64,000 nt of DNA, taken from IMG/VR virus record IMGVR_UViG_3300032782_000008, one strand, 5' to 3'. The stretch is from an uncultured virus (IMG/VR IMGVR_UViG_3300032782_000008). Lineage: Duplodnaviria; Heunggongvirae; Uroviricota; Caudoviricetes. The notes below the pieces were generated by a model that worked only from the letters and a program-made list of their open reading frames with translations, made no database searches and had not been told where the DNA came from. The position numbers and the translations under genes were made by a program. Shown here in pieces: positions 4,153 through 41,106 of this stretch; positions within the stretch are counted from its first letter, which is position 1; each line of letters begins with the position of its first letter.

Positions 4153-4158
4153 GTCCGT

Positions 4159-6880: not shown

Positions 6881-6894
6881 GATACCCCTGGCTC

Positions 6895-8571: not shown

Positions 8572-8573
8572 GA

Positions 8574-13880: not shown

Positions 13881-14324
13881 TTAGAGGGCGCGGTGTTTTG
13901 TCAGCATAGATGGCGCAGTCGCAGCAACCGCAGCCCGCAACGAGGGGTGCTGCTCGTTGTACATCTGTCTCGCCGTAATAATATCGATCGCGCCTTGTGC
14001 ACCTTGAACAGCACGCCCGATCATAGCACTCAATTGTGCTGCCTTCTGAGGCGAAGATGCATCAAACCCATTCGTGTAAATCGGGGCGAAACTTGCCAAG
14101 ATCATCTGCAACACACTCTTGGCTGCTTCCAACACTAGGTTCTCGTTCGAAATGTCCGGTCCTTGTCCGCTCGGAGCCGCTCGTGCAGCACCGCTCGCCG
14201 TATTACTCGCCGACGACGGATAACGCGCAGGCGGCGGAGACGCGAGCGTTCTTCCAGGCGCATCCCTCGTCGACATCCCTAGAATCTCACCCCACTCCTT
14301 GTCACTGAAACGATCTCCAGCCAT
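13881..14324 (-). CDS. hypothetical virion protein
   Basis: AAGGAGA SD; contains EILG motif. Confidence 0.6.
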   Translation of the reverse strand: MAGDRFSDKEWGEILGMSTRDAPGRTLASPPPARYPSSASNTASGAARAAPSGQGPDISNENLVLEAAKSVLQMILASFAPIYTNGFDASSPQKAAQLSAMIGRAVQGAQGAIDIITARQMYNEQHPSLRAAVAATAPSMLTKHRAL

Positions 14325-14334
14325 GTTTTTCTCC

Positions 14335-15078
14335 TTACCCTTTTTTGAAACAATCAAGCGGGTCGACGATATCCGAGTAGACGTTCAAAGGATCGGCCCC
14401 GAGGACGCCGCCGCCCACGACCTGATCCGAAGCGCCGAAGCCAAACGGCGCGCCGACGTTGTAGACGCTGTCGACAAACGGAAACCACTTGAGCGGCGAG
14501 TGCTTCGTCATCGACAGAAAATGCGAGTCGTTCGCCGTCGCGTAGCGCTCGAGGCTCTCCCACGAGCCAGCGACACCAGCCGCCTTCGCCTCGTCGACGA
14601 TCTTCTTGACCGCTCCAGTGCCCATCGAGTGCGCGAGCTTCACCAGCCGCCAGTAGTACGTCGAGCCCTTGGGAGCCACGCCAAGCTTGTCGACGTCCCC
14701 CATGTACTTGCCAATGAGCGCCAGGCCGCCGTTGATCGAGTAGACCGGATCGGTCGACAGGCGCTGATGGTCGAGCCCGAGCGTCTTCGACTCGTCGGGC
14801 ATCAGCTGGAAGTAACCACGCTCATCGTACTTGGTCGTGTCGTCGAGCTTGCCACCGGACTCCTTGGCGATCCAGCCGACGAGCAAACCAAGCGGAATGC
14901 CTGACGACTGCGCCGCCTTCTTCAATTCGTCGAGGATAGCGTCGACGCGCTTGTAGCCAGTCGTGCCGGGCGTCGGCGGTTCGTCGGGCTCGTGCACGGG
15001 CGGCTCGTCCTCCTTCGCCGAGAAGATAAAGAAGAGCGAGGCAAGCGCGCCGGCGGTGATTAACAACGGGCCGAGCAT
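14335..15078 (-). CDS. membrane-anchored lytic transglycosylase (SLT-like)
   Basis: N-terminal TM helix, WIAKESGG catalytic Glu, GYFQLMP, DPVYSINGG. Confidence 0.85.
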   Translation of the reverse strand: MLGPLLITAGALASLFFIFSAKEDEPPVHEPDEPPTPGTTGYKRVDAILDELKKAAQSSGIPLGLLVGWIAKESGGKLDDTTKYDERGYFQLMPDESKTLGLDHQRLSTDPVYSINGGLALIGKYMGDVDKLGVAPKGSTYYWRLVKLAHSMGTGAVKKIVDEAKAAGVAGSWESLERYATANDSHFLSMTKHSPLKWFPFVDSVYNVGAPFGFGASDQVVGGGVLGADPLNVYSDIVDPLDCFKKG

Positions 15079-15082
15079 GTTA

Positions 15083-15337
15083 TTACTTTTGGCCTCTCAA
15101 ATAGAGACCCATACCAATACCACCAATCACTGGACCGCCAAACAGAGCACCTATAAGTGCTCCAACACCTGTATGCGGTTTTGCCACTTTGGCGCCAATC
15201 ACTCCTCCTACAATGAAACCACCAGCAAGCACACTAATGAGGACCAGCGGTGAAGTTTGATGTTCTTCTTTGACAGCCGTTTCCGACATGCCAGTGATTT
15301 TCACTCCTTGATTATACAATCGATGCATTGTATTCAT
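15083..15337 (-). CDS. small Gly-rich membrane protein with two TM helices
   Basis: Two hydrophobic Gly-zipper helices; start uncertain. Confidence 0.65.
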   Translation of the reverse strand: MNTMHRLYNQGVKITGMSETAVKEEHQTSPLVLISVLAGGFIVGGVIGAKVAKPHTGVGALIGALFGGPVIGGIGMGLYLRGQK

Positions 15338-15351
15338 TGTGTCTCTCCTTC

Positions 15352-18048
15352 TCATCTGCCCATTGCTGCGCGGGTCGCCGTCACCGCGACAGCCTTACCC
15401 GTATCACTCGTGATCGCCTTGTAGAGCGCGTACAAGATGCCGCCACCGAGAACGACCGTGCCGCCGATGAGCGCCACGCTGGTCCACTTGATCGTCGAGG
15501 CGGCGGCATCCGCAGCCTTGCCCACGCCCGTGGATAGCTGCTGCACGCTCTCCTTGACGTCTTCCCACTTGAGTGAACCATCGAGGACACTCTCGGCTTG
15601 ATTGACGAGCTGCGAACCGTCGACGAAGTATGACCGCACGTCCTCCCAAATCGGACTCGTAGCGTCGTCATCTGGAAGCGCTACAACTTTGTCCGACAAC
15701 GCCTTGGCGCGATTGTCGAGCGCAATGACCGAGTCGTGTAGTGGAAACTCGTTCGTCGGCACGATCGCCTTGGCGATGATGTCCTGCATGGCCTTGGTCG
15801 CGCGCTGAGCGAGCGCGAGACCGTGATCGAGCCACGCCATCTTCAAGTTGTGGTTCGTCGGCTCGAGCGTGTCGAAGCGCTCTTTGAGCCCGTCGACGTC
15901 GATGGCACCGAGCACGTGACGATACAACCGCTTGCCACGAGCCTCGGCGAGCGCGACTCCGAGCACGATGTCGGGATGGACTTGCTTACCAACCACGGTG
16001 GCACCGAACGGATCTCCGCCGAAGTCCGAACTGTCGAAGTCGCTCCCGTCGGACATCGAATCGTCCATCGAACCGAAGTCGTCGACGAAGCTATCGTCGT
16101 ATCCTCCGCCGCCTTGATCGACATCTTCGAGCATCGACTGCGCAACTGCGTAATCGTCCTCCCCGCCGCCTTGTCCACCCTGATCGTCGCCCCAGTCGAC
16201 ACCAGAATCGTCACCGCCACCCCCGCCGCTATCGAAACCGCCTCCACCGCCTCCACCGTACGATGCACCGCCAGCAGGTGAAGCTCCGTACGGCGACATC
16301 GCCGCGGACGACATCATCATCTGCAACTGCTGAGCAGCCTGGTTCGCCGCATTCGACGCATTGTTGGCGTTGGTGGTGGCAGTGTTCGCCTGCGCAAGCC
16401 ACGCGGACGCGTCGGAGTTGGCGGCGAGCGCCGCGCCTTGCTGCCCGAGCGTTGTCGCCGCCTGACCGGCGGTCGTGGCTGCCTGCGCCAGCTGCATGAG
16501 CCCCATCGCACTCAGCGGCGTCCCATTCGGCTGCATGATCATCGACGACGCAAGTTGTTGCTGCAGCGTCGGATTCATCTGCGCCTGCTGCGCCAACATC
16601 ATCGCGTTCTGACCAGCCATCGTCGCCGCTTGTCCAGCAGCGTTGACGGCCTGGATTGCAGTCGTCACCGCCGACGATCCGGCGGTCGCTTTCGGAGTCA
16701 CATTCAAAGTTGGTGTTCCGCTGAACCACGCTCCTTGCCAATTACCCGGTTGGATAGCGGCAACTTGTTGCACCCAAGCATTTGCAGAGCTGATATAGGA
16801 ATTCGCCTGCGAAGCAAGAGACGAGTTTCCCGACGTAGTGCTAAGTGTATCGAGAAGACTGTTTCCTTGTTTGATAAGCTTAGATCCGCTGACGTCCAAC
16901 GCATTCAACGATTTGCTAGTAGCGGCAATACTCTGATCAGTTTGCCAACCGCCAGCCCCCAACATGCCCACTAATCTTTTGACCTGATCATCGAGATCTT
17001 GAATTTGAGACAGAACGTCGGCTACTTGCGCCGTGATATCAGCAACTGTAGCCGACGCATCAACATACGTTGTCGTATCGTCGCCGATGATATCCACCAT
17101 AGAGCCAAAGATCCCGCCAAGCACATCGCCTTTGATGGCGGCAGCCTGCTGTGTCAGTTTGGATCCCGACGACTTCAACTTCGCTGCAAGTTGCGGATTA
17201 TGCTTAGCCAACTTGCTAGCAGATGCTTGTAGTTTTTGTGCTGCAGAAGTCGCGTGTGCTTTGACCGCCTGCTTACGTGCATCTTGTGCCTTATCTTGCG
17301 TAGTCGCGGCCTTCTGCGTGCTCTTCTTCGCTTCGTCCGCTGCCTTCTTGGCCGCGTCTTGCGCCTTCTTCTGCGCGTCGGTCAACGTCGGTGGTTTGGT
17401 CGCCGCAGCGGCATCCTTAGCCTTGGCCACGGCTTTGACCGCGTCGGCGGAGGCGGCATGCGCCTTGTTCAGGTCTGCCGGATGACCCGTCTTCTTGGCC
17501 AGATCGATCGCCTTTTTTGCTGCCGATTGCGCGATGGACGCTTTCTGTTGCGCCACCTGTGCCTGTTGCACTTTGGCCGCCTGAGCAGCTGCGCGCTGCT
17601 GCGCCGGCGGGAGCGCCGCACCGCCTCGAGTGACAGGCAGCTGCCGCGCTACGGGCGCAGGCGTCGTCCCGCCTCGCGTCGTGGTCGCAGCCGCACCGAG
17701 GATCTGATAGCCGCCGCGACCAGCCAGCGCGCCGAGGATGCACGCACCAACCACGGTCGAATCGCTCGCGGTCGTCGAGCTGTCTGTCGTCTGCGGGGTC
17801 GTCGCGTCAGCCGGCTGCACCTGCGTCGAAGAGTCTGACGGCGAGGTGCTTGGAGCCGTGCTCGAAGGCGCCGTCGCGGCTGGCTGCGCACCTTGCTGCG
17901 TCTGCTGCATTGCCGCGAGTTGAGCCTGCAGCTGCGCCTGGCGACGCTGTGCTCGGAGCAGGTGCGCAGCGATCTGCGGGTTCGGCGTGACAGTGCCCGG
18001 ATCGACTCCGAGCGCCATCAGCTCCTTGTCGTTCAATCGCTCGCTCAT
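15352..18048 (-). CDS. large Ala/Gln-rich segmented virion protein with C-terminal TM helix
   Basis: ATG 18048 in an ATGA overlap; Ala/Lys, Gln, Gly and Asp-rich blocks; TM VALIGGTVVLGGGILYALY. Confidence 0.75.
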   Translation of the reverse strand: MSERLNDKELMALGVDPGTVTPNPQIAAHLLRAQRRQAQLQAQLAAMQQTQQGAQPAATAPSSTAPSTSPSDSSTQVQPADATTPQTTDSSTTASDSTVVGACILGALAGRGGYQILGAAATTTRGGTTPAPVARQLPVTRGGAALPPAQQRAAAQAAKVQQAQVAQQKASIAQSAAKKAIDLAKKTGHPADLNKAHAASADAVKAVAKAKDAAAATKPPTLTDAQKKAQDAAKKAADEAKKSTQKAATTQDKAQDARKQAVKAHATSAAQKLQASASKLAKHNPQLAAKLKSSGSKLTQQAAAIKGDVLGGIFGSMVDIIGDDTTTYVDASATVADITAQVADVLSQIQDLDDQVKRLVGMLGAGGWQTDQSIAATSKSLNALDVSGSKLIKQGNSLLDTLSTTSGNSSLASQANSYISSANAWVQQVAAIQPGNWQGAWFSGTPTLNVTPKATAGSSAVTTAIQAVNAAGQAATMAGQNAMMLAQQAQMNPTLQQQLASSMIMQPNGTPLSAMGLMQLAQAATTAGQAATTLGQQGAALAANSDASAWLAQANTATTNANNASNAANQAAQQLQMMMSSAAMSPYGASPAGGASYGGGGGGGFDSGGGGGDDSGVDWGDDQGGQGGGEDDYAVAQSMLEDVDQGGGGYDDSFVDDFGSMDDSMSDGSDFDSSDFGGDPFGATVVGKQVHPDIVLGVALAEARGKRLYRHVLGAIDVDGLKERFDTLEPTNHNLKMAWLDHGLALAQRATKAMQDIIAKAIVPTNEFPLHDSVIALDNRAKALSDKVVALPDDDATSPIWEDVRSYFVDGSQLVNQAESVLDGSLKWEDVKESVQQLSTGVGKAADAAASTIKWTSVALIGGTVVLGGGILYALYKAITSDTGKAVAVTATRAAMGR

Positions 18049-18551
18049 CGACGCACCGCCGAGATGATACCGAACGCCAACGCCAACGAGGCGACGCCGC
18101 CAAACACCGCCTGCCAGCCTTTGATCGGTGCTCCCGACCAAACCGGACGCGTCCAAAAATTGTCGGGCGCCGACGGTGCAGTTGATGTGGCTGCCGACGG
18201 CATCGCCGGCATGGACGACGGGAAGACCGACGACAAAAACGAGGTCGCCATCGAGGGAGCAGAGACACTCGGTTGACCACCCTGTGGAGCCATCACACCG
18301 AGCGCCATGAGAACGCTGTAATCGACGTCCCCCGTCGGCGTCTGACCGGCCGCCGTCTGCATGCTGCGGATGGCGGCCGCCGTCTTGGGGCCGTAAATCC
18401 CGTCGATCTTGCCTGGATCAAAACCCTTGGCCTTGAGCGCAGTCTGCACAGCACGCACGGTCGTCGAGTCGTCGTTGTACATCACGCCCGCCTTCGGGAT
18501 GCTCGTGACATCGCCGGCGAGTGCGTAAGCGCCAATGGTGATCGCTCGCAT
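18045..18551 (-). CDS. peptidoglycan-binding (PG_binding_1) protein with C-terminal TM helix
   Basis: VRAVQTALKAKGFDPGKIDGIYGPKTAAAIRSMQ...TGDVD. Confidence 0.85.
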   Translation of the reverse strand: MRAITIGAYALAGDVTSIPKAGVMYNDDSTTVRAVQTALKAKGFDPGKIDGIYGPKTAAAIRSMQTAAGQTPTGDVDYSVLMALGVMAPQGGQPSVSAPSMATSFLSSVFPSSMPAMPSAATSTAPSAPDNFWTRPVWSGAPIKGWQAVFGGVASLALAFGIISAVRR

Positions 18552-18790
18552 TATTTCACCAGCTTCTTCGTCAGTGTGACAACTGCGAAACCGATCAAAC
18601 CCAACCCAGCCCCGACAACCAACAACGCTGGTGTGCCTGTCAGAGTTCGCGTTTTGCCTGAGGTCGTGAGCGATACGCTCGCAGGACCGCCATCGCCGTG
18701 GATAATGCCCGGGATGTACGCGCCGATCGTCGACTTGCGCTTCTCAAGCGCACCCAAGACCGCGCAACCGATCGTATACGAGCTGTTCAT
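18551..18790 (-). CDS. small membrane protein
   Basis: Begins MNSSYTIGCAVLG; C-terminal TM helix. Confidence 0.65.
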   Translation of the reverse strand: MNSSYTIGCAVLGALEKRKSTIGAYIPGIIHGDGGPASVSLTTSGKTRTLTGTPALLVVGAGLGLIGFAVVTLTKKLVK

Positions 18791-19194
18791 TTGCTTCTCC
18801 TGTACGCGTCCACAGCACCTGCGACGATCCACCCGACGGAGAACCCGACCATAGATCCGATCACCTTGCCCGTCTTAGTCTTGCGCCCGCTGCTGCCGAT
18901 CAAGGCGCCTGCCACCGCGGTGCCGGTCATCGCCATGTTGCGGACGGCAGAACCTTTGTGCTCGGAAATCAGCATAGGTAAGTTTCGACCGAGCGACGCG
19001 CCGCCAATGAGCCCGAGAATGCGGTGCCCCGGAAACACCATCGCACCGATGGCGCCGCCGGCGAGCGTACCGACGTTGTCGGGCACCTCAGGCGCTTGCA
19101 CCGCGCCGATTCGCTCGAAAAAACGCGACATCACCTGAGGCTGTTTTTTGGCCAGCTCGGCGAGCGTTTGCGGCTTTGCCAGTGCATGACTCAT
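18787..19194 (-). CDS. Gly-zipper membrane protein
   Basis: Several hydrophobic Gly-rich helices. Confidence 0.65.
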   Translation of the reverse strand: MSHALAKPQTLAELAKKQPQVMSRFFERIGAVQAPEVPDNVGTLAGGAIGAMVFPGHRILGLIGGASLGRNLPMLISEHKGSAVRNMAMTGTAVAGALIGSSGRKTKTGKVIGSMVGFSVGWIVAGAVDAYRRSK

Positions 19195-19871
19195 CGATAC
19201 GCCCTCTTCGGTGCACCGCGCATGACGATATGATAGCCGATCACGCTGAGTCCAATCGCCGCCGCGCCGGCGAACAGTATGCCGGCTGTCCGCATACCCT
19301 CGTTCGGACCTTCATCGTCGCGCTGGATTTGTCCCGCCGCCGCCATCAATGACTGCTTGGCGCTGGCGACCTGCGCCGGCGTCGTCGCTTGTTGAGCAGC
19401 CGCTGCTGCAGCGTGCGCCTGCGCCTTGACAGCTGGCGGAGCGACCGCCGCGACCTTGGCAGCCGCCGCCTGAACATCCTGCGCCGTAGTCGCGCTCGCT
19501 GCATCATAGGCGGCCTGTTTCGCTGCGTAGCCTTTGGGGTCGACGACGTCCGGGCGCTTGAGGGCCTCGAGCGTACCATCGGTGATGTTCTTCCCGTCCG
19601 ACGACCAACCGTACTTCTGGTTGAACGCCATCACCGACAGCTGCGTACGCGAGCCGAGCACACCATCGTCCTTGTACCCGTCCGAGTACGGATCGAAATC
19701 CTTGTTGCCGGTCGCCAAGGCGAGCCCGTGTAGCTGCCGCTGAACCATCTGCACCGTCGCCTTATCGGTGTAGACTTTGCCCTGATCCGAGACGTCGCCA
19801 CCAATGACGAACCAGCGCTTCCGCTTGGTCGCGGCGCCTAGGATTGCGCAACCGATGGTGTACGGCGTCAC
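19191..19871 (-). CDS. PG-binding-like protein with C-terminal TM helix
   Basis: VQMVQRQL...DDGVLGSRTQLSVMAFNQKYG; begins MTPYTIGCAILG. Confidence 0.7.
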   Translation of the reverse strand: MTPYTIGCAILGAATKRKRWFVIGGDVSDQGKVYTDKATVQMVQRQLHGLALATGNKDFDPYSDGYKDDGVLGSRTQLSVMAFNQKYGWSSDGKNITDGTLEALKRPDVVDPKGYAAKQAAYDAASATTAQDVQAAAAKVAAVAPPAVKAQAHAAAAAAQQATTPAQVASAKQSLMAAAGQIQRDDEGPNEGMRTAGILFAGAAAIGLSVIGYHIVMRGAPKRAYR

Positions 19872-19874
19872 GAC

Positions 19875-20558
19875 TTACCCCCTCCGACGCAGAAGAAGCG
19901 CAACTCCCGTCAGCACGACTGCACCGCCGGCCATCCAACCCCACATCGGCACGCCGCCGAACTTCTGCGTGAAGAAGTTGCCGTCTCCCTTGCCACCGGA
20001 GAACCCGTGCTTGGCCAAAAGTGCCGAGTCGGGACTCGTCGTCAGCGCAGTTGAAGGCGCCGAGCTGGCCGAGGCGACGCCTGCGAGCACCTTCTGCCAC
20101 GCGCGCATCTTCGACTGCGCCGCCGCGTTCGACGAGTTATTGAGTGCATTCTGCGACGCCGTGTTCGCCATCTTCTGCGCCGCTTCGAGTCGCTTGCCCG
20201 CGCGATCGGCATCGAGCCCGGCCGCGGTCGAGATCGCCGCCGCCTGCATCGCGCTCGCCAATGAAGACGCTGCCGCGATCTTCGATGCATCACCACCCTG
20301 CTTGGTGACATCGAGCGTCGTCTCGGCGTCCGCCCACGCACTGTCGGCGGCGATGGCCTTCTTGAGCTTGTCGTCCTGTGCAGCGTTCGCGGCGTTCGCC
20401 GCGCTCTGTGCCTGCGCGTAGTCGACGCCCTTGGTCGCCGCTTCAGCAGCCGCACTGAAGAGCGAGCCGAAGTCGAACGACGGCCCCTTCGCCGCGTCAG
20501 CGCCCAAAATTTCGTACACGACCTGGCGGCCGAGCATCTCGTGGGGATCCGTGCTCAT
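19875..20558 (-). CDS. Ala-rich protein with C-terminal TM anchor
   Basis: GVPMWGWMAGGAVVLTGVALLLRRRG. Confidence 0.7.
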   Translation of the reverse strand: MSTDPHEMLGRQVVYEILGADAAKGPSFDFGSLFSAAAEAATKGVDYAQAQSAANAANAAQDDKLKKAIAADSAWADAETTLDVTKQGGDASKIAAASSLASAMQAAAISTAAGLDADRAGKRLEAAQKMANTASQNALNNSSNAAAQSKMRAWQKVLAGVASASSAPSTALTTSPDSALLAKHGFSGGKGDGNFFTQKFGGVPMWGWMAGGAVVLTGVALLLRRRG

Positions 20559-20884
20559 CGTCCTCTCCTCTTATGGCCGCGTCCGCGCTTGCGCTTGCTC
20601 GCACTGACCCGACGCTTTCGCTTCGATTCTACAGGTTTTTTCATGAGGCGATCGATTTCGTTCTGGATCGCTTTCACCGTCTTGCCGTGGTCACCGACCA
20701 TCGCCGCGTGCTCGAGGGCCTCGTCGCGGTACGTGTGCGCGCGAGTCAGCCAATCGAGGACACCGCTCGCTCGGTACAACCGGAAGCACGCGATAGCCCG
20801 TCCCGCCCACTTCTTGGCGGTCTCGCGTTCGACCTGCGCCTCGGACTTCTGACGCACTTCGGCATATTGGTCGGGAAGGCGCAT
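20555..20884 (-). CDS. protein with a highly basic C-terminal tail
   Basis: KRKRRVSASKRKRGRGHKRRGR. Confidence 0.65.
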   Translation of the reverse strand: MRLPDQYAEVRQKSEAQVERETAKKWAGRAIACFRLYRASGVLDWLTRAHTYRDEALEHAAMVGDHGKTVKAIQNEIDRLMKKPVESKRKRRVSASKRKRGRGHKRRGR

Positions 20885-20885
20885 G

Positions 20886-21116
20886 CTACTTCCAGCGAGA
20901 TTTGCCAGGGTTTTTTCGAAGCCACTGACGTCGCCGTGTTCTATTGCGACGTCTCACCTTTTTATTTGCAATTTTTCGACGCAAAGAGGCGATCAGTCGT
21001 TCCGCCTGTTTTTTCGTCAAGGACCCAGCAATATCCTTCGACGCGTAGAAGTGCAGCGTACGCCCGCGAGAAACTCGACGACGTTTCGAAACGTGCTTTC
21101 TCTTTCGCTTCGCCAT
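20886..21116 (-). CDS. very basic putative core/DNA-condensing protein
   Basis: Arg/Lys-rich throughout; begins MAKRKRKH. Confidence 0.6.
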   Translation of the reverse strand: MAKRKRKHVSKRRRVSRGRTLHFYASKDIAGSLTKKQAERLIASLRRKIANKKVRRRNRTRRRQWLRKNPGKSRWK

Positions 21117-21117
21117 T

Positions 21118-21465
21118 TTACTTTTTCCTCTTCTGCCGGTGACGGAACTTCCGCGCGATGAGTGCGAAACGGGCGCGCCGACCGATCACGCCGCTGCGCT
21201 TCGCAGCGCGCCGAAGCTTCGACAGCGGGATTTTCTTGTCGAGCGGAACCTTGAGCGCGCGGTGCAGATAGCCCTTGTGCTTCGGGTTGATCGCTTTCTG
21301 TACCCAGCGCTTCGTACTCCGACGTTTGGCGACGCGACTTTTTCGACGTCGAGGGATTCCCTTGGTAGAAAACCCCATTGCTTCGAAATCGCGGCGAACT
21401 GCGTCCGCTAACGTCATCTCGCCAGGACGACCAGGACGTCCTGATCGATGCTTTCGCTTCGCCAT
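21118..21465 (-). CDS. very basic putative core protein
   Basis: Begins MAKRKH; WVQKAI..KGYLHRALKVP..KKIP..KLRRAAK...GRRARFA resembles a small basic phage protein family. Confidence 0.7.
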   Translation of the reverse strand: MAKRKHRSGRPGRPGEMTLADAVRRDFEAMGFSTKGIPRRRKSRVAKRRSTKRWVQKAINPKHKGYLHRALKVPLDKKIPLSKLRRAAKRSGVIGRRARFALIARKFRHRQKRKK

Positions 21466-24868: not shown

Positions 24869-24871
24869 TGA

Positions 24872-25906: not shown

Positions 25907-26886
25907 CGCGTCCTCATTTTGTCCATCTTCCCGAGCGCGAGCTGGTTGCTTGCGTGTAGGAGCAGGTTCGGATTGGTGTTTACCAACCGCGTTGCCTCGG
26001 CGAGTGCGCGACGATCTCCGTTCTGCGCGCGCTGTACGAGGTCCATCGTCGCCGCCACCTTAGAATCGGTCTTCGGCGCAACCAGTGCGACGTGCGGATG
26101 CCCGCCAGAAGCACGTGCAACAGCCCCGAGCACGTTGCACATCTGCGACAGCGCATCATTGGCACCGATAATCTCGGCCAGATGGAGAGCCGCCGGCGCG
26201 ATCTGGTGCGGCGCGAATCCCAAGCACTGAGCGCAACCGACCACCTCTTCCACACCGCGCTCGACCTTATCGCCGGTGGTCGCAGCCAGCGGCTGCCCGG
26301 CAGGACCGATGAAGAGCACCGTCACGAGAAGCTCGTCGCCGTCGCGCCAGCAATCCACGCCGCGCGGGTTAGCAGGAAGGTCGACCGCATCACCGCCACG
26401 GCAAGCGCGCTGCACCATGTCCGCGATGGCTTGGTGTGCCTCCGCATCGCGATCTTCGTGATCGTCGACGGCGTCCTCAAGCGCAACGATTCGCCGCTCG
26501 AGATCTTCGATGTATGGCGCTCGGCGTGCAGATCGAAAATCCGAGTAGCTCTGTGGATCGTCGATGCGGACAATTCGCGCTCGCGGCATATCTGACGCGT
26601 ACTGCTTGTGCAACAGATCGAACAGCGGCAACGGAGGCGTCGCGTTCGCGTCATCGTCCGCACCAATGACGCGATACGAGACGCCGGCGGTCTCGAACGT
26701 CATGTACGTCGGATCGTAGTCGACACCGACGATATCTACCGCACTCGACAAACGATTGCGTCGACGCTTCTTGTGCGCGTGCTTCAGCACGGCGCTCGCT
26801 GCGGTCGCAACGTCATCGTCCCCCTCTTCAGAAAACTGAGGAAGGTCGTCGAACGCGACTGACGTGTTGTACGGATCGCGCATCAA
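25903..26886 (-). CDS. hypothetical virion protein
   Basis: Coupled ORF with IVG, VIG, VVG, IIG and VLG motifs. Confidence 0.7.
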   Translation of the reverse strand: MMRDPYNTSVAFDDLPQFSEEGDDDVATAASAVLKHAHKKRRRNRLSSAVDIVGVDYDPTYMTFETAGVSYRVIGADDDANATPPLPLFDLLHKQYASDMPRARIVRIDDPQSYSDFRSARRAPYIEDLERRIVALEDAVDDHEDRDAEAHQAIADMVQRACRGGDAVDLPANPRGVDCWRDGDELLVTVLFIGPAGQPLAATTGDKVERGVEEVVGCAQCLGFAPHQIAPAALHLAEIIGANDALSQMCNVLGAVARASGGHPHVALVAPKTDSKVAATMDLVQRAQNGDRRALAEATRLVNTNPNLLLHASNQLALGKMDKMRTR

Positions 26887-27557
26887 AACACCCCGTTCGC
26901 ACGGTTGTAGAGCGCCATCGTGTCCTCGAACTTGTCGCCGTCACCGCCCCAGTTCATGAGCCCGTTCGGCCCGCAGCGGTGCAAAACTGCGAGCACGCCA
27001 CTCAGGGTCATGTCATCGGGCAGATCGTCGGGCGTCGGGATCATTTCATTGTCCAGCCCTTCGACATAGCGGCGCATTGAGGCGGCGAAGATTTTGTATT
27101 GCATCTTCGGACTCGCCAAGAACGCCTCTTCGGTCATAGGGGGCACCCACTTGCCTACCCAAGCCATGGTGTTCATGGGCGTGCGCACCTTCTTGAGGTC
27201 ACGCATGAGCCCGAAATCGCCGAGTCGACGCGGACGCATCGCGAACATACCCATCTCGTTCGAAGCCGATACAGCTCCCGGCTCCTGTGTGCGCATCGCG
27301 ATGGCGAACTGCGTCCACGCTTCGTCAGAGACGTTCGGCAACGCGCTCTTGAGCACGCGCCCGGCGAACGCAGGCGGAGTCTCCGTCTCGCCGATCGGAC
27401 GAAGAGCTGGGCCTGTAGCGGCCTCGGCCTCGGCGACCGCGCGCTCGGCGACCTCCTCGGGCGTCTGCTCGCGCGCGACCTCGTCGAGGTCAGGTTCGAC
27501 AACGTGCGTGCGGCCAGCGAGGACCGCAGCGCCGATCGTGTACGGGCTAGCGCTCAT
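26883..27557 (-). CDS. lysozyme-like fold protein, possibly degenerate
   Basis: GMFAM...LGDFG...FLASPKMQ...LSGVLAVLHRCGPNG resembles lysozyme-like/transglycosylase family patterns. Confidence 0.45.
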   Translation of the reverse strand: MSASPYTIGAAVLAGRTHVVEPDLDEVAREQTPEEVAERAVAEAEAATGPALRPIGETETPPAFAGRVLKSALPNVSDEAWTQFAIAMRTQEPGAVSASNEMGMFAMRPRRLGDFGLMRDLKKVRTPMNTMAWVGKWVPPMTEEAFLASPKMQYKIFAASMRRYVEGLDNEMIPTPDDLPDDMTLSGVLAVLHRCGPNGLMNWGGDGDKFEDTMALYNRANGVF

Positions 27558-28330
27558 CGCCCTCCCCGTAGAATGCGCGCAACCTCGGCCTTGTCACGAG
27601 GCGCGGAGTCGAGCGGTGACACTGACGCACGCCGCACACCAAGAACCTCTTCGAAATCGACGTCGGCAAACGGGTCAATCACCTGCTGCTGCCGATTGCC
27701 GACGTACTTGACTCCGTACTTCTTGATGAGGTCGCAGCGCTCCTCGTTCTTGCGAATCTCCTCATCACGATCTTTGGCGCGCTGCGGCTGCGACATGCCG
27801 AGGAGCAACGAAGGATCTTCGCTCGTGCGGTAGCCCACGTTCGCGAACGGGGGCCACAGCACGAGTGCGTGATAAATGGTGCCACTGCCGTCGGGGGAAG
27901 GACGGTTGGTCATGTACGGATCGGCCTTGATGCCCTGTTGACGTAGCTCGGCGACGCGCCATGTCGCGAGATTGTCGCAGTCGCCTCCGCCATTTTGGAT
28001 GATTTGTCCAATATCACGGAAGCGCTCGCCTCCAAACACTTGGCGAATCGTCTCGAGAACCTGCGAAACGTCAGCTCGCGAAGCAGATTTACCAAGTGCG
28101 TTGCGAAGCACGGTGACCTCTTCGGGATCGCCGTCGAATTGCTTCGGCAATTGATATTTGACGCCCGACTTATACAGCTTCGGCGTGTTCGGGTTCTTGC
28201 GCAGGTAATTCATGTCGCATTGCACAAGCCCTTCAAGAATCCACATGAGATTCTGTCGCGTCTGCTCGAGGTCTTGTTTGCTGTCATCTCCGTCGAACAG
28301 CGTTAGATCCATCAAGATGTAGCGCAGCAC
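27554..28330 (-). CDS. transglutaminase-like cysteine protease (maturation protease candidate)
   Basis: GGDCDNLATWRVAEL (Cys), YHALVLW (His), EDPSLLLGM (Asp); GTG 28330 with GAGGTG SD. Confidence 0.75.
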   Translation of the reverse strand: MLRYILMDLTLFDGDDSKQDLEQTRQNLMWILEGLVQCDMNYLRKNPNTPKLYKSGVKYQLPKQFDGDPEEVTVLRNALGKSASRADVSQVLETIRQVFGGERFRDIGQIIQNGGGDCDNLATWRVAELRQQGIKADPYMTNRPSPDGSGTIYHALVLWPPFANVGYRTSEDPSLLLGMSQPQRAKDRDEEIRKNEERCDLIKKYGVKYVGNRQQQVIDPFADVDFEEVLGVRRASVSPLDSAPRDKAEVARILRGGR

Positions 28331-28343
28331 TACAGCACCTCGC

Positions 28344-28703
28344 TCAGACGATCGCTCGCCCAAAAATTGAAATGTCGAATGTGCAGCTCTCCACGAACGA
28401 CACCGTGATCGAGATACTCAAACCTTGCTGGCACGTGTCCCAGCGGATCCCGTTTCCCAAGGCCGCTGGCCCGAAGAAATCGACGAGCGCAGAGCCGGAC
28501 GCAGTCGGGCGCTGGATTCGCTGCCCCACGATGAACTGGACGATCCGCGTGCCGCGACCGGGCGTGCTGCCACTGTCCGTCGCCATCACCTTCTCGGCGC
28601 GAAACAGACACTGCATCTGCTGCGTCAGCACGAGCTGCGTTCCGGCCTGTCCGAACGCCGGCCCGAACGACACGTCCCAATCGCGCCACTGCTGCACGCT
28701 CAT
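28344..28703 (-). CDS. capsid-like beta-sandwich paralog 3 (bare domain)
   Basis: About 72 of 113 residues identical to the domain in 31916..32488 by manual alignment. Confidence 0.65.
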   Translation of the reverse strand: MSVQQWRDWDVSFGPAFGQAGTQLVLTQQMQCLFRAEKVMATDSGSTPGRGTRIVQFIVGQRIQRPTASGSALVDFFGPAALGNGIRWDTCQQGLSISITVSFVESCTFDISIFGRAIV

Positions 28704-28709
28704 CCTCCA

Positions 28710-30200
28710 CTAGATCACCGCCGAGCCGAAGATCGTGCAGTCGAACGTGCACGCCTGCACGAAGCTAACGGTCATGGAGATCTGCAGCGCCGGCTGACAG
28801 GTGTCCCACAACTGCCCGTTACCGAGCGCCGTCTGCGCGAAGAACGCCGTTAGTGCTCCCTGACCGCCTCCGGCTGGGCGCTGCAAACGGTGACCGACCT
28901 GCACGCTCAAGATGCGCGTACCGGTGCCGCCGACCGAATCCGTCGCCATGACCTTTTCGGTGCGGAAGTGAAACTGAGGCTGCGAATAGAACGTGAGCTG
29001 CTCACCGGCCGGCGCGCTCGCTGGACCAAGATCGAGCTGCCACTCGCGCTGTTCCATCGGCGCCACGCGGCGGGAAAGCATCGGCGTTCCCTTCGCCGTG
29101 CGATTGATCTCGTACTCGTTGTACGACGTGGCGTGCTGCAGATACTCGTCGACACCGATGATGTCCGCGCGCTGGTTTTCCAGGTTGTAGTTGAACTCGA
29201 CCGTCTCGCCGCCTTCGATACCTAGCTCGTGCGAGACTTCGGCTAAGGCGAGCATCTCCTGTCCGATCATCTCTTGGTGCAGCGAAACGTCGACTTCATC
29301 GTCGTCTTCAGCGTAAAGCGGCTCGTCCAATCCGGCGCCGCCGTAATCCTCTCCGGTTCCCGTATCCGGATCGTGTGTACCGAACTCAGGCTCCTCTTCG
29401 TCCGGCGTGCCGACGCCGTACTCGGGTCCGACCGACGCTTCATTGAGGAGGTCAATCATGCTCGGCCCGGTGTAGATCTCATCGACGCTGCCGATTACAC
29501 GCGCCGACGGGTCGTGTTCGTCGTTGATCTCGATGTTGCCGGGGATATCGTCGCCGTAATCGATATCGTCGGTCAGCAACATGTCGATATCGCGGAAGGC
29601 AACTTCCGGATCGAGCATGTCCTCTTCATCGTTGTCATCTTCTTCGCCGATAGTTCCAGTGTCCGGTTCGTGCGTTCCGAACTCAGGCTCCTCCTCATCC
29701 GGCGTACCAACGCCATACTCGGGGCCGCTCGACGCCTCGTTGAGGAGGTCGAGCATGTTTGGTCCGGTATAGATCTCGTCGACGCTGCCGATCGTGCCGA
29801 AGTCCGGTGCATGTGTTCCGAAATCTGGCTCATGCGTGCCGAGATCCATCCCAATCACGCGCGCCGACGGATTATGTTCATCGTTGATTTCGATATCACC
29901 AGGGATGTCGTCACCAAAATCGATGTCGTCGGTCAGGAGCATGTCGATGTCACGGAAGGCAACTTCCGGATCGAGCATGTCCTCTTCGTCTTCGTCGGGC
30001 GTGGCGGCATCAGCGTTCTCAGGCTGAGCGTCGAGCCCGTCGACCGACGTGTTGACTCCAAAATCCGGTGCGTGCGTTCCGAAACGAGGTGTGTGCGTAC
30101 CGAAGTGAATGCCTTCGAAGTCTCCAGCCAGAACGTCTTCCACGAAGGCCGAGTCCGGGAGCGCCTCGATCACATCGTTGATGTCGTCCAAGTCGCTCAC
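28710..30200 (-). CDS. capsid-like paralog 2 with a long acidic repetitive N-terminal extension
   Basis: GTG 30200 with AAGGAGA SD; C-terminal PQFHFRTEKVMATDS...ALGNG.LWDTCQ...TVSFVQACTFD. Confidence 0.75.
   Translation of the reverse strand: MSDLDDINDVIEALPDSAFVEDVLAGDFEGIHFGTHTPRFGTHAPDFGVNTSVDGLDAQPENADAATPDEDEEDMLDPEVAFRDIDMLLTDDIDFGDDIPGDIEINDEHNPSARVIGMDLGTHEPDFGTHAPDFGTIGSVDEIYTGPNMLDLLNEASSGPEYGVGTPDEEEPEFGTHEPDTGTIGEEDDNDEEDMLDPEVAFRDIDMLLTDDIDYGDDIPGNIEINDEHDPSARVIGSVDEIYTGPSMIDLLNEASVGPEYGVGTPDEEEPEFGTHDPDTGTGEDYGGAGLDEPLYAEDDDEVDVSLHQEMIGQEMLALAEVSHELGIEGGETVEFNYNLENQRADIIGVDEYLQHATSYNEYEINRTAKGTPMLSRRVAPMEQREWQLDLGPASAPAGEQLTFYSQPQFHFRTEKVMATDSVGGTGTRILSVQVGHRLQRPAGGGQGALTAFFAQTALGNGQLWDTCQPALQISMTVSFVQACTFDCTIFGSAVI
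29357..29995 (-). repeat. internal duplication of a ~95-aa acidic unit
   Basis: EEDMLDPEVAFRDIDMLLTDDID..ARVIG twice and GSVDEIYTGP..EPEFGTH twice, similar at DNA level. Confidence 0.9.
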
Positions 30201-30211
30201 GAAAAATCTCC

Positions 30212-30240
30212 TTGATTTACATTTGACCACGAAGTAATAT
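30212..30240 (+). promoter_or_regulatory. promoter, probably leaderless, for the homing endonuclease
   Basis: TTGATT-17-TAATAT ending 7 nt before ATG 30248. Confidence 0.55.
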
Positions 30241-30247
30241 TAACTCC

Positions 30248-31405
30248 ATGAGCAAACGCATTACGTCCGAACAAGAAGATGAACTGATTCGCCGCTACAA
30301 TGCTGGGGAGGCTATCAAAGACATTTGCACGACTCTGTCCCTCTCGAAAAGATCCGTCTATAACATCATCAATAAGAAAGAAGCTGGAAAACGTCGCGTC
30401 CTTGTTACCCTCGACGACACTCAAAGCCTTCTTGTCGCGCAACGTTACCTCGCCGGTGAAAGTGCCGATACTCTCGCTGACGAATTCGGGGTACACAAGC
30501 AAACCGTATATAACATCCTCGCTCGACGCGGTGTAAGTCCCCGTGTCGAGAATGTGCGCCTCAATGCCGAAGAGAGACGTGAAGTTGCTTCGGCTTGTGC
30601 CAGCGGCAGCAAAGTCAAAGAGGCCGCGGTCGCGTTCAACGTCGGAGAAACGACGGTGAACAAGATTCTGCGCGAAGCAGGCGTTGATTTGCCGAAAGGA
30701 AGACCGCCGGTTTACACTGTCAATCATGCTGCATTCGACGTCATCACACCGGAGAGCGCCTACTGGATTGGTTTTCTGTTCGCAGATGGTTGCATTTACA
30801 AAAACGTACTCATCTGCTCTCTCGGAATCAAAGACCGAGAGCATCTTGAAAAAATGCGCACCTTCCTCAAATCCAATCATCCGATCTACGAGACCGAAGG
30901 AAAAACCGCATGGGGCGGACCTTTTGCCCGTCTCAGCATCACTTCCGCCCCGCTTTTCAACGCTCTCCGTCGACACGGGATTATTGCGAAGAAGCTTAGA
31001 GTTCCAACACCAGAGCTTGCCCAGTCGCGCGATTTTTGGCGCGGTATGGTTGACGGTGACGGCACTATCGGAACTATCGGCGACGGTAAGTACATCTACC
31101 CGCAAGTTCGTCTTTTCGGGCAAACACCGTTGCTGGAAAAATTCCAACACTTCACCTTCGCGATCACGAATTCTTGGCTCAACACTAAAGATTGTTCGCG
31201 TAAGGACGGAAGTGTTTTCACCCTCTCCAGCGGAAGCCGTAACGCCGGAAAAATAATCGACGTGCTTTACCGCAACGCGAGTGTTTCGCTCGATCGGAAA
31301 AACAAACGAGCGCAAGCCATCATCGCCGGCGATTTGCGCCGCTTCGAGCCCTACGAGGAACCCGAAATCGTTCACGATCCAACCTTAGAGCAATTCGGAC
31401 AATAA
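30248..31405 (+). CDS. free-standing LAGLIDADG homing endonuclease with three N-terminal HTH repeats
   Basis: AYWIGFLFADGCI and DFWRGMVDGDGTI; repeated HTH units ending SVYNII, TVYNIL, TVNKIL. Confidence 0.9.
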   Translation: MSKRITSEQEDELIRRYNAGEAIKDICTTLSLSKRSVYNIINKKEAGKRRVLVTLDDTQSLLVAQRYLAGESADTLADEFGVHKQTVYNILARRGVSPRVENVRLNAEERREVASACASGSKVKEAAVAFNVGETTVNKILREAGVDLPKGRPPVYTVNHAAFDVITPESAYWIGFLFADGCIYKNVLICSLGIKDREHLEKMRTFLKSNHPIYETEGKTAWGGPFARLSITSAPLFNALRRHGIIAKKLRVPTPELAQSRDFWRGMVDGDGTIGTIGDGKYIYPQVRLFGQTPLLEKFQHFTFAITNSWLNTKDCSRKDGSVFTLSSGSRNAGKIIDVLYRNASVSLDRKNKRAQAIIAGDLRRFEPYEEPEIVHDPTLEQFGQ

Positions 31406-31800
31406 CACTCGCTCACCCCGCGTACGTTTTCGATAGCAGGAAGAAAAAGTCCCCAGCCTCTCACGTTAGTCAGTCCGCTTCGCGACGGGTGCACATCCCA
31501 GTACATTTTTCCACGCACCCCGACTACGGCGTGCCATTTGTCGTGCTCGGCCGTTCTCGCTGTCTCACCAATAATCAGATGTCCGGCGGTCGTGTAACCG
31601 ACAGCCGCTTCGAACTTTTCCGGTCCGATTTCGAAATACGATTTGTTGTAGTGCTTGAACAAGAAAGACCGGAAAACTTCGATATATTGTTGACGATCAC
31701 CGTCGACGTAGTTCGGCAACTCCGACACAGCACAACCGAGCAGCATAGCGACACAAGTCGGCCAACAATTATCTGGCTTTGATTGTGTCAAGAACTGCAT
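31372..31800 (-). CDS. papain-fold (C39-like) peptidase
   Basis: Q...NCWPTCVAMLL (Cys), WHAVV (His), YWDVHPS (Asp). Confidence 0.65.
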   Translation of the reverse strand: MQFLTQSKPDNCWPTCVAMLLGCAVSELPNYVDGDRQQYIEVFRSFLFKHYNKSYFEIGPEKFEAAVGYTTAGHLIIGETARTAEHDKWHAVVGVRGKMYWDVHPSRSGLTNVRGWGLFLPAIENVRGVSECYCPNCSKVGS

Positions 31801-31915
31801 CAACGAATCGCTCCCTCTTTCTAGAGAAACACCCGCCATTACAGAGATCCTGTAATGGCGGGTTGTCAAACGTGCATCGAAATCGTCCTTTAAATTCTAG
31901 AACGATTTCAGATAT

Positions 31916-32488
31916 TTAGCCGACCACGGCTTTGCCAAACACGGTCGCGTCGAAGGTGCACGCCTGGATGAACGACACCGTGATCGCGATCGAGAGGGCC
32001 TGCTGGCAGGTATCCCACTTGATGCCGTTGCCGAGCGCCGTCTGCGCGAAGAACGCCGTCAGCGAACCACCGCCGGTCGCCGGGCGCTGCAGGCGCTGAC
32101 CGATCAGCACCTGGGTGATGCGGGTGCCGTAGCCGGCCGGCGAGCCCGAGTCGGTCGCCATGACCTTCTCGCCGCGGAAAAGGCACTGCGGCGCGACGGT
32201 GATGATGGTGGTGGTGCCGGCCGCGCCGGACACCGGGCCGAAGGAGAGATCCCAGTCGCGGGCCTTCTGCAGCGGCTGACGGTGGGTCACCGGCCGCGAC
32301 ATGGCGGCACGCTTGGCCATGTACTGGGTGAACGAAGGGCTCTTGGCCAGCAGCTCGTTGGCCGCGCCGAGCACGTCGTAGCCGTCGCCCATGACGGGCA
32401 TCAGGCTGTCGCCGTGCGCCGAGCCGCCGCGGGTCTGCTCGCCCACGATCTCCGTCCAACCGTCGTCGCCGATCACGAGATTGCTCAT
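31916..32488 (-). CDS. putative major capsid protein (single jelly-roll candidate)
   Basis: Very strong GC3 bias, GGAG SD, near the start of the structural operon, beta-strand patterning, two paralogs downstream. Confidence 0.6.
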   Translation of the reverse strand: MSNLVIGDDGWTEIVGEQTRGGSAHGDSLMPVMGDGYDVLGAANELLAKSPSFTQYMAKRAAMSRPVTHRQPLQKARDWDLSFGPVSGAAGTTTIITVAPQCLFRGEKVMATDSGSPAGYGTRITQVLIGQRLQRPATGGGSLTAFFAQTALGNGIKWDTCQQALSIAITVSFIQACTFDATVFGKAVVG

Positions 32489-32668
32489 TTTCTTGCTCCG
32501 TATCGTCGTTTCATCCGCCCGAGGCGACCATCGCCTTCGGGGCTCCCTCGCGGGCTCGGCTACTCTCGTTCGCGGGCTCGTCCGCGCTCGATTGCTACCG
32601 AGGTGCTGCTCGCCCGTGCGGATCGGACTCGACCGACCGTCGGTGCTAGTTCCTCGACGCCGCTCCGA

Positions 32669-33175
32669 TTATCGACGGGCGGCGTACTTCGCGATCTGGT
32701 CCGCGGTCAGGAAGTTGCCCCCCATGGCCGCCGGGATGTGACCGACCACAGGCACGGGTTTGCCGGGCAGCGAAGCCTGCGCCGACTTGCCAGGCAACGA
32801 AGCCCGCGAATTCGGGTGGTCCAGATGCACCAAAGCGCCGGCCTTCTCGAGACCCCACTTGGCGCCGATCGACGTCAGCGCCGACATGATGCCGGCGTCG
32901 CCGATGCGCTCGAGGTGCGGAGCGAGCCTCTGCCCCTTGCCGAAGGCGTTCGCCGCCGCGGACAGGAGGAGCGCTCCGCCACCGATCACGACGTCGAGGC
33001 TCTGGCCCTTCCAACTCCAGCGATCGCCGTAATAGCCCTTGGCCGCGCCGAAGGCGAAGGCAGCGGCGTAACGCTCACCCTTGTCGACGAGAACGCCCTT
33101 GAACCCGTCGCTTTTGGGGGCGGTGCCGTGCGGAAGCTCGCTCGGGATCTTCTTCAGCTTCGAGAAAAACGACAT
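32669..33175 (-). CDS. membrane-associated protein, first gene of the structural operon
   Basis: AGGAGA SD; hydrophobic segments; strong GC3 bias. Confidence 0.7.
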   Translation of the reverse strand: MSFFSKLKKIPSELPHGTAPKSDGFKGVLVDKGERYAAAFAFGAAKGYYGDRWSWKGQSLDVVIGGGALLLSAAANAFGKGQRLAPHLERIGDAGIMSALTSIGAKWGLEKAGALVHLDHPNSRASLPGKSAQASLPGKPVPVVGHIPAAMGGNFLTADQIAKYAARR

Positions 33176-41093: not shown

Positions 41094-41106
41094 TAGGAGA
41101 CAACAC

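Follow-up and report, generated by a model that had tools for sequence, protein, structure and literature searches.

Adenain of adenoviruses, pS273R of African swine fever virus (ASFV), and I7 of poxviruses are maturation proteases; and the double-glycine leaders, which are short, end in Gly, and carry hydrophobic residues upstream, are removed by papain-like C39 peptidases, enzymes that cut after Gly-Gly. In adenovirus maturation, as presented in PMC12517501, a short Gly motif recurs in capsid, membrane/cement, and basic core proteins, where the sites delimit domains, the site patterns of adenain being [MIL]xGx|G as well as [MIL]xGG|x. A further precedent is LapG, a transglutaminase-like Cys-His-Asp site-specific protease, which takes 108 residues off the N-terminus of LapA and of which a Cys135 mutant was tested, according to PMC3032545. 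Here we analyze a window of 64,000 nucleotides (G+C ~60%) from a contig of 112,451 bases of an uncultured virus (IMG/VR record IMGVR_UViG_3300032782_000008), some 48 kb of that contig lying outside the window. On the minus strand of the window, from position 33175 down to 13881, extends a probable particle-building module in whose products the tripeptide [VIL][VILM]G recurs in strong excess. The explanation that we favor, with about even confidence, is that the tripeptide, usually preceded by an acidic residue, constitutes a maturation cleavage code (acidic-hh-Gly, h being a hydrophobic residue) that is read by the product of the open reading frame (ORF) 27554—we designate the ORFs by their left-hand coordinate—within the same module. 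We infer that the block builds virions, that this enzyme is the protease reading the motif, and that cleavage falls on the bond following the Gly.

As with the adenovirus protease AVP (adenain; family C5, clan CE), the cysteine enzyme of the window is encoded along with structural genes and several Gly sites per protein would be possible; unlike adenain, the enzyme presents a Cys-His-Asp order of catalytic residues on an apparently transglutaminase-like fold, and its cleavage is here only predicted. The initial annotation of this stretch had compared the system with the cysteine proteases of adenoviruses, poxviruses, and ASFV, which comparison survives as a functional analogy: the fold and the catalytic order differ, the adenain patterns were not enriched in the block (24 versus 19.6 expected, z 1.1; other ORFs, 22 versus 16.1), and the likeness would accordingly be functional instead of evolutionary. 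A transglycosylase domain (SLT) and peptidoglycan (PG)-binding domains in the block point, moreover, to a bacterial host, in which respect the virus differs from the adenoviruses. The enzyme resembles LapG and the BTLCP family (bacterial transglutaminase-like cysteine proteinases, Peptidase_C93) in its Cys-His-Asp residues and its apparently transglutaminase-like character, and LapG cuts a short motif of small residues; but LapG belongs to cells, in whose periplasm it has a single adhesin as its substrate, whereas ORF 27554 is part of the core gene set of a virus, its candidate sites number in the dozens, and their motif is another one. The double-glycine leaders, in turn, differ from the motif studied here, in which the hydrophobic pair immediately precedes a lone Gly and which is not confined to N-terminal leaders; and the one C39-like ORF of the window (31372) is an accessory gene. 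With the tailless membrane-containing phages of the P23-77 and HHIV-2/SH1 type, which have two single-jelly-roll capsid proteins, and with the Salisaeta phage SSIP-1 the virus would share capsid proteins that are small, paralogous, and jelly-roll-like, a large number of membrane proteins, and a transglycosylase associated with the virion; the contig, however, measures 112 kb, unlike the records of P23-77 (17 kb) and SSIP-1 (43.8 kb). In the portions of text that a full-text literature search covered, we found no description of such a virus family or of the motif.

The motif excess in the structural block

We counted [VIL][VILM]G in the 24 minus-strand ORFs located between 13327 and 33175, which comprise 6208 amino acids (aa), and, for control, in another 37 ORFs of the window, with 10,620 aa in total. 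The block contained 69 copies versus the 23.7 expected from shuffles of whole proteins (standard deviation 4.6), with at least one copy in 19 of the 24 ORFs, whereas the control ORFs contained 34 copies versus 33.5. The excess persisted when the residues were shuffled inside blocks of 10 residues (69 versus 29.3, z 8.5) or, more generally, of 10 to 50 residues (expected 26–29, z 8.3–9.3); when membrane-like segments were masked according to the Kyte–Doolittle scale (57 copies versus 21.2); and when six over-long ORF starts were trimmed (67 versus 27.1, the maximum among 1000 shuffles being 44). Local composition, membrane segments, and over-long starts are thus ruled out as the cause. Since the 69 copies are encoded by 56 distinct 9-mers, a DNA-word origin is likewise rejected, and the signal must reside at the protein level. 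With z values of 8–10 across these estimates, the excess in the structural block is real and strong.

The order of the residues is an essential part of that signal. A [VIL][VILM] pair was followed by Gly in 67 of the 241 instances in the block versus 34 of the 466 in the other ORFs (Fisher p 8e-13); and among 60 tripeptide classes of the forms h-h-X, X-h-h, and h-X-h, h-h-G alone was enriched (z 8.6, the runner-up reaching 2.5), the reverse order G-h-h being present 22 times versus 28 expected. The copies that had been pointed out beforehand were all found in ORFs 28710, 25903, 21812, 21465, 19875, 15352, and 13881, in the SLT protein, and in the enzyme (EVLG), with the addition of a PIIG to the six copies listed for ORF 21812.

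To describe the surroundings of the motif we pooled the window with 12 related loci, which pool contained 283 copies. At position −3, E or D was present in 103 of these, while in the window itself E occupied that position in 8 of the 69 copies (3.2-fold), so that the earlier remark that the motif often follows D/E holds weakly for the window and more clearly for the pool. At +1 Ala was enriched ~2-fold, positions −2 and −1 were hydrophobic, and further downstream nothing was enriched. The information in the motif accordingly ends at the Gly, a shape usual for the sites of papain-like proteases, in which the P2 position is hydrophobic. In the pool, the density per 1000 aa was 8.9 in structural ORFs versus 3.1 elsewhere.

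A metagenome scan provided 59 related loci. For 13 of these the sequence sufficed for a count, in which the capsid gene and the ORFs downstream of it had z values of 1.8 to 6.3 (for example, 30 copies observed versus 10.6 expected), and those of the remaining ORFs ranged from −1.9 to 3.0, with 10 of the 13 between −1.9 and 1.1. The three values above 1.5 (L022, 3.0; L011, 2.1; L002, 1.7) arose possibly because the crude split had left structural genes among the remaining ORFs. Two loci, L049 (37 versus 16.2) and L055 (31 versus 15.9), displayed the excess although their capsid protein is only ~30% identical to that of the window. As the 13 loci are relatives, these results constitute a replication within the family and not independent trials. 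Of these 13 loci, 12 also encode a homolog of ORF 27554. In the structural blocks of three known tailless, membrane-containing phages the motif was counted 9 times versus 15.6 expected (PRD1, z −1.8), 11 versus 21.5 (P23-77, z −2.6), and 31 versus 28.5 (SSIP-1, z 0.5).

The cysteine enzyme and the capsid-like proteins

The candidate maturation protease, a cysteine enzyme of apparent transglutaminase fold, is encoded at 27554..28363 (minus strand, as are all the features below unless otherwise indicated) and is a core gene of the family, with homologs in 24 of the 59 related loci, those lacking it being mostly short contigs. Its catalytic core spans residues 112–190 of the longest ORF (27794..28030), whose numbering we use throughout, although the homologs suggest a true start near residue 12. 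Cys129, His165, and Asp183 were invariant in 13 of 13 aligned sequences, namely ORF 27554 and 12 relatives. Among these 13, the Pfam family Transglut_core (PF01841) matched seven (best E 0.0013) and Peptidase_C93 (PF06035) two (best E 0.003), all under the curated cut-off; the window enzyme itself scored 12.6 bits against Transglut_core, whose cut-off is 23, over residues 117–167, and one homolog (P0199) carries a precomputed PF01841 assignment. An AlphaFold2 (AF2) model of the enzyme, with a predicted local distance difference test score (pLDDT) of 68, retrieved 6g4h (TgpA) as the top Foldseek match (E 5.1e-3, prob 0.96, TM 0.22) as well as 9crn, 3esw, 8z4f, and 3isr, none of them at E<=1e-3; the matches comprise TgpA, TglA, yeast PNGase, the pseudomurein isopeptidase PeiP (PeiP/PeiW), and putative cysteine proteases. 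A sequence-profile search of the PDB with the enzyme gave nothing significant, and neither ORF 27554 nor its 12 relatives matched Peptidase_C5 or any other family of clan CE. We therefore take the product of ORF 27554 as a transglutaminase-fold Cys-His-Asp enzyme, the choice between protease, isopeptidase, and ligase not being readable from its sequence. In the designation of a transglutaminase-like enzyme made beforehand, the conserved core gene and the catalytic triad stand firm, while the family matches that would name it are weak and lie below the cut-off.

No similarity to the enzyme sequence was found among 50,697 phage records, nor by an alignment search of the viral contig set; in contrast to those sets, the enzyme profile retrieved 1967 cluster representatives at E<=1e-3 from a collection of 1.84 billion, 81 of them at E<=1e-30, and there are 266 close homologs. 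A tentative relative, the gp34 of SSIP-1 (annotated as structural), was discarded: its Cys and His blocks align with those of the enzyme, but the hhalign probability of 1.6% is not significant. Four homologs of ~400–420 aa (P0136, P0224, P0225, and P0228) have a precomputed intein-splicing domain (PF14890) and match the query in two stretches, which arrangement indicates that inteins invaded the gene in some relatives.

The enzyme carries the motif itself: an E-E-V-L-G in the flexible C-terminal tail (27638..27652), which is a candidate site for self-cleavage or self-docking. In that otherwise variable tail the motif was present in 90 of 118 homologs, mostly as an acidic residue and VLG followed by L/V/I-R. 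When we modeled the complex between enzyme residues 12–220 and capsid N-terminal residues 1–76, the prediction scored 0.00, a result that counts neither way.

The most conspicuous bearer of the motif is a capsid-like protein of 190 aa (31916..32488), composed of a disordered N-terminal stretch of 47 residues, two helices, and a jelly-roll-like beta sandwich formed by the C-terminal 115 residues. Its ORF has the highest third-position GC (GC3) of the block, 0.93. We found 172 metagenomic homologs, on contigs of up to 120 kb, and no sequence relatives among the 50,697 phage records, the viral contig set, and the species genomes. The AF2 model had a pLDDT of 66, with residues 1–47 below 50. In VIA-align, the sandwich matched 4ind_A (the jelly roll of STIV A223; Z 8.1, rmsd 3.1, 100 residues aligned), HHIV-2 6h82_b (Z 7.8), and satellite virus coats (Z 7.0–7.5), among them STMV (1a34_A, Z 7.5), all of which values are borderline, Z scores of 7–8 being common, according to the tool, for models without a true relative; in Foldseek it matched bromovirus capsids (E 6e-3). 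The jelly-roll-like fold, the top GC3, and the existence of three paralogs make it likely that ORF 31916 encodes the major capsid protein, as had been proposed; nevertheless the role is plausible and short of proof, because ~48 kb of the contig lie outside the window.

The N-terminal 41 residues of this protein (32366..32488) contain four copies of the motif—VIG at 5–7, IVG at 14–16, VMG at 32–34, and VLG at 39–41, to be read with the preceding residue as the LVIG, EIVG, PVMG, and DVLG previously noticed—of which the last lies directly before the helical arm. In 29 capsid-like sequences G16 and G41 were invariant and G7 was conserved in at least 90%; IVG and VLG were each kept in 27 of 30 orthologs. 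Among 118 full-length homologs, 103 had at least three copies before the R/Q-D-W triplet, and the distance from the last Gly to that triplet was 33 in 97 and 36 in 12, the window included. A distant clade, in which the capsid is ~30% identical, carries there two or three tandem (E/Q)-E-I-L-G, in all 11 of the distant capsid ORFs inspected. We also considered whether short capsid homologs might begin at the predicted cut site, but the start of these is an internal Met lying a few positions beyond that site, and they have no bearing on the question.

A second, long capsid paralog (28710..30230; 506 aa in the longest ORF) consists of an acidic, internally repeated N-terminal part followed by the same arm and beta sandwich, its C-terminal 150 residues matching the capsid-like homologs. 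The protein contains RVIG twice and DIIG, which latter copy (G359) ends the candidate pro-region (29154..30230). The spacing from that Gly to the R-x-W triplet is the same in both long paralogs (G41 to R77 and G359 to R395, 36 positions or 35 residues between), as had been stated earlier; and the parts upstream are unrelated, that of the longer protein being acidic and of ~359 residues. The recurrence of the motif at the start of the conserved arm in both proteins therefore looks like a processing boundary. A third paralog (28344..28703, 119 aa) starts just before R-D-W, with no N-terminal extension.

The proposed cleavage code and its rivals

Under the reading that we favor, ORF 27554 would recognize a [V/I/L][V/I/L/M] pair and a Gly, usually preceded by an acidic residue and often followed by a small one, and would cut at or next to that Gly during assembly. 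Such a cleavage would strip the short N-terminal leaders from the tail-anchored membrane proteins, remove 41 and ~359 residues, respectively, from the N-termini of the two long capsid paralogs so that the arm is freed, and divide the two ~1000-residue proteins into pieces; and the enzyme would also trim its own C-terminal tail. We infer this code because of the position of the boundary in the paralogs, the one-sided profile of the motif, its presence on the enzyme, the co-occurrence of both in 12 of the 13 loci, and the precedent of LapG. If the proposal is true, bacterial viruses would possess a maturation of the adenovirus, ASFV, and poxvirus type, independently built on another fold and another motif, which circumstance bears on how often the proteolytic maturation of jelly-roll, membrane-containing virions arose. 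The prediction is directly testable, concerning as it does a single enzyme, a single Cys, and specified sites, among them the Gly that precedes the capsid arm; and the motif, for its part, provides a cheap computational handle on the structural proteins of these viruses, in which almost every structural gene is without a known family. Enrichment and conservation in homologs, the lack of either of which would have refuted the idea according to the initial annotation, were both observed, so that on these two points it stands.

Several observations nevertheless weigh against the cleavage of the motif by ORF 27554. The tie between enzyme and motif appears to us as a co-occurrence, and the virion-building role of the block is suggested by the SLT and PG-binding domains, the membrane anchors, the borderline jelly roll, and the codon bias. 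The copies are evenly spread along the proteins, with decile counts of 9, 8, 7, 7, 7, 2, 4, 11, 8, and 6, and with 13.3 copies per 1000 aa in the first 50 residues versus 10.6 in the rest. The claim that the motif favors polar regions finds no statistical support in the window, where the flanks are neither more polar nor more acidic than around other hydrophobic pairs, in hydropathy as in charge, whereas the pooled loci displayed a small acidic bias (p 0.004). Some copies are certainly structural: of the 69, 12 lie inside membrane-like segments; the L-I-G at 128–130 of the capsid-like protein sits within the jelly roll; and an L-L-G, kept in 16 of 16 sequences, stands beside the catalytic Asp of ORF 27554. 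In the capsid-like protein the first 22 residues are highly conserved, more so than a discarded propeptide needs. The enzyme, furthermore, could act on the cell wall, since the same fold serves amidases and isopeptidases such as PNGase and PeiP/PeiW. Finally, Uroviricota is the Atlas label of those few members of the capsid-like clusters that are classified, which label, together with the ~48 kb of contig outside the window, leave some chance that the virus is tailed.

The main rival explanation, which we judge unlikely but deserving of serious weight, is that the motif is a docking or incorporation tag that is never cut and through which many unrelated proteins would bind one partner—the shell, a scaffold, an internal membrane, or the enzyme acting as an adaptor—and so enter the particle, somewhat as the cargo-loading peptides do in encapsulins. 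A tag would generate the same statistics and the same conservation as a cleavage site. Moreover, the tandem copies (EEILG-x-EEILG, or four in 41 residues), for which avidity would account, the conservation of the capsid N-terminal peptide as a whole, and the even distribution of copies along the proteins, and not only at their ends, fit docking about as well as cleavage. Against docking, the largest number of copies is borne by the capsid-like protein itself, the start of the arm coincides exactly with the motif in two paralogs with unrelated upstream parts, the information stops abruptly at the Gly, and the module contains a conserved Cys-His-Asp enzyme with the motif in its own tail. An alternative that would dispense with any shared reader, and that we regard as quite improbable, is a structural habit—a strand followed by a turn, or a glycine-zipper-like packing at membranes—that was inherited and then amplified by paralogy. 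The copies in membrane-like segments, those buried in folded domains, and the several small proteins with weak glycine-zipper-like Pfam matches are in keeping with such a habit, as are the undistinguished flanks in the window and the fact that the related loci are not independent samples. Yet the excess survived both the masking of membranes and the shuffling in 10-residue blocks; neither the reverse order nor the other 59 classes were enriched; the other membrane-containing phages lacked the excess; the four capsid copies fall in a segment that AF2 models as disordered; and copies appear again and again in acidic linkers that are not homologous, at positions that shift.

That the motif is a cleavage site, but for another protease—either ORF 31372 or a host enzyme—with ORF 27554 cutting, for example, cell-wall peptides at entry, seems to us very doubtful. 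The accessory cysteine-peptidase-like ORF at 31372..31869, which lies beside a homing endonuclease and next to the capsid gene and belongs to phrog_5845 (no known function; PHROG E 5.3e-15), has a Cys-containing N-terminal block and an Atlas neighbor cluster (score 0.94) with Peptidase_C39 (PF03412) in 15% of its members, an indication to be taken as a lead only; in addition, the fold matches of ORF 27554 include isopeptidases and an amidase, and SLT and PG-binding proteins are encoded in the same block. ORF 31372, however, had no Pfam match even at E 5, and of the 59 related loci only 1 has a homolog of it, whereas the excess of the motif extends over the family, so that the distribution of this ORF rules it out as the family's reader; ORF 27554, on the contrary, accompanies the excess in 12 of 13 loci and bears the motif itself. 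At a similarly low level of expectation we place the idea that the enzyme is a ligase, which might form a thioester with the Gly of the motif, to be resolved by an amine in the style of sortases or ubiquitin ligases, so as to join particle proteins to one another or to a membrane lipid. A ligase would explain the spread of copies along the long proteins, the tandem tags, and the tagging of nearly every structural protein and of the enzyme; and, if true, it would represent an enzyme-made chainmail or anchoring in an undescribed lineage of large, probably tailless, membrane-containing bacterial viruses.

Other genes of the block, the family, and the window

The remaining proteins of the block bear the motif in diverse contexts. 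Upstream of the capsid-like gene, a codon-biased protein of 168 aa (32669..33175) has a PVVG at 143 that is kept in 18 of 26 orthologs. Downstream of the enzyme gene follow three core structural-block proteins: ORF 26883 (26883..27557, 224 aa; 17 loci), with a leader Y-T-I-G-A related to the motif, the orthologs beginning with Y-L-L-G or Y-L-I-G; ORF 25903 (25903..26886, 327 aa), with five copies (DIVG, RVIG, EVVG, EIIG, and NVLG), of which the RVIG is kept in 7 of 11 orthologs; and ORF 24872 (24872..25906, 344 aa), with an AILG at 134 kept in 6 of 11 orthologs and, in these, an acidic-hhG-D-E-F upstream of the conserved domain. In the orthologs of all three the copies are located in short N-terminal leaders and in acidic linkers that precede the conserved domains, frequently with a shift in position. 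A protein of 1018 aa (21812..24868) has seven copies, its C-terminal part being Gln-rich and coiled and its end acidic; and an Ala/Gln-rich protein (15352..18156; 934 aa in the longest ORF) with a C-terminal membrane anchor has 13 copies, or 11 with its start trimmed.

Between those two long proteins lie smaller ones. The tail-anchored membrane protein of 115 aa at 21465..21812 starts with W-D-E-I-I-G, and the small tail-anchored membrane proteins of the related loci likewise have N-terminal hhG leaders. Three consecutive small ORFs at 20555..21507, very rich in Arg and Lys and with a single copy (GVIG), are candidates for DNA-condensing core proteins, by analogy with those of adenovirus cores. 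The stretch 18045..20558 encodes five small proteins, four with a C-terminal membrane anchor and one with a PG_binding_1 domain, three of which share the leader Y/I-T-I-G-[A/C]-[A/Y]; altogether, four proteins (18045–19871 and 26883–27557) start with a near-identical leader made up of Y/I, T-I-G, A/C, and a short hydrophobic stretch. Three of these shared-leader proteins have a C-terminal membrane anchor, and in two a Cys follows the Gly in a loosely lipobox-like arrangement without a signal peptide. At the far end of the block, the membrane-anchored lytic transglycosylase (14335..15078; Pfam SLT, E 1.2e-7) has two copies in its C-terminal tail, its distant relatives ending in IVG...LLG, and the last motif-bearing ORF (13881..14357) has W-G-E-I-L-G near its N-terminus.

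The carriers of this block constitute an uncharacterised, widespread family of large uncultured bacterial viruses, whose contigs reach 120 kb and whose members abound in soils and groundwaters. The order of genes in the related loci is conserved: the small codon-biased protein, the capsid-like protein, often a homing endonuclease (16 loci), the long capsid paralog, the enzyme (24 loci), the homologs of ORFs 26883 (17), 25903 (11), and 24872 (11), and finally a very long protein and small membrane-anchored proteins. In a PHROG scan of the 109 ORFs of 8 related loci we recognized no terminase, portal, or tail protein, and the sole head-type match was to the 'head protein' phrog_240 in L050 (E 1e-13). 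One relative, L038, has on its 34.6-kb contig a tyrosine integrase (3590–4597; phrog_1, E 3e-36) ~5 kb upstream of the capsid gene, so that some relatives may be temperate or much smaller.

From 33175 to 13327, the block is nearly without known families, 20 of the 28 ORFs in and around it having no Pfam match at E 0.01. The matches that were obtained inside are those of the SLT transglycosylase (14335) and PG_binding_1 (18045), along with weaker ones of the PG-binding or glycine-zipper type in three small proteins, and just beyond the block those of a 2OG-Fe(II) oxygenase and a RecA-like ATPase. Neither terminase, portal, HK97-type capsid, nor tail families were present among the 65 ORFs of the window scanned against Pfam and PHROG, and no packaging ATPase of the FtsK/HerA type was recognized in the window. 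On the opposite strand, a homing endonuclease with helix-turn-helix and LAGLIDADG domains (30248..31405, plus strand; phrog_4645, E 4e-42) is inserted between the capsid paralogs in a stretch of low GC (~30–32 kb) and stands outside the motif system; as homologs lie beside the capsid gene in 16 of the 59 related loci, that spot is, by the comparison of these sequences, a recurrent landing site for such endonucleases.

By codon-position G+C, the genes of the window run on the minus strand from ~36.3 to 0.3 kb and on the plus strand in the region of ~38–61 kb. The plus-strand part and the left end encode functions of replication and modification, namely a VapE-like primase-helicase and an XPD-like helicase, an exonuclease, an N6 methylase together with an HNH endonuclease, and a sugar C-methyltransferase along with a DegT aminotransferase, a GNAT protein, and two glycosyltransferases. 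The sugar genes belong to a cluster for the synthesis and transfer of modified sugars (845–11126, minus strand) that contains the C-methyltransferase, the DegT-type aminotransferase, the GNAT acetyltransferase, two to three glycosyltransferases, and a dual-specificity phosphatase; as this cluster adjoins the structural block, it hints at glycosylated particles.

The RecA/KaiC/DnaB-like ATPase mentioned above (34994–35971, minus strand; AAA_25, phrog_26214 of function unknown) has a Cys-rich N-terminal stretch and lies near the capsid gene in the window and in 13 related loci; we considered it as a clue to packaging, but its matches in the phage records were all <30% identical and thus uninformative in that regard. 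Next to it, an ORF of 107 aa beyond the block (35971–36294, minus strand), has three copies of the motif and counterparts in three related loci, and may be a member of the structural set. As for a second code, R-G-G was found only 7 times versus 2.8 expected (z 2.5) and was discarded. Four ORFs end in Arg-Gly-Gly-x (at 27554–27570, 46885–46899, 48677–48691, and 52160–52174), and these ends arise because their codons spell the Shine–Dalgarno-like GGAGG, GAGGTG, or GGTGGA before the overlapping start of the next gene, which explanation rules them out as ubiquitin-like tails. Lastly, the DUF3560-methylase protein at 41014–43050 (plus strand) is related, through its methyltransferase (residues 511–678), to residues 761–926 of the gp43 of SSIP-1 (40% identity, E 2e-29), a structural protein of 2319 aa (L062, 26863–33822).

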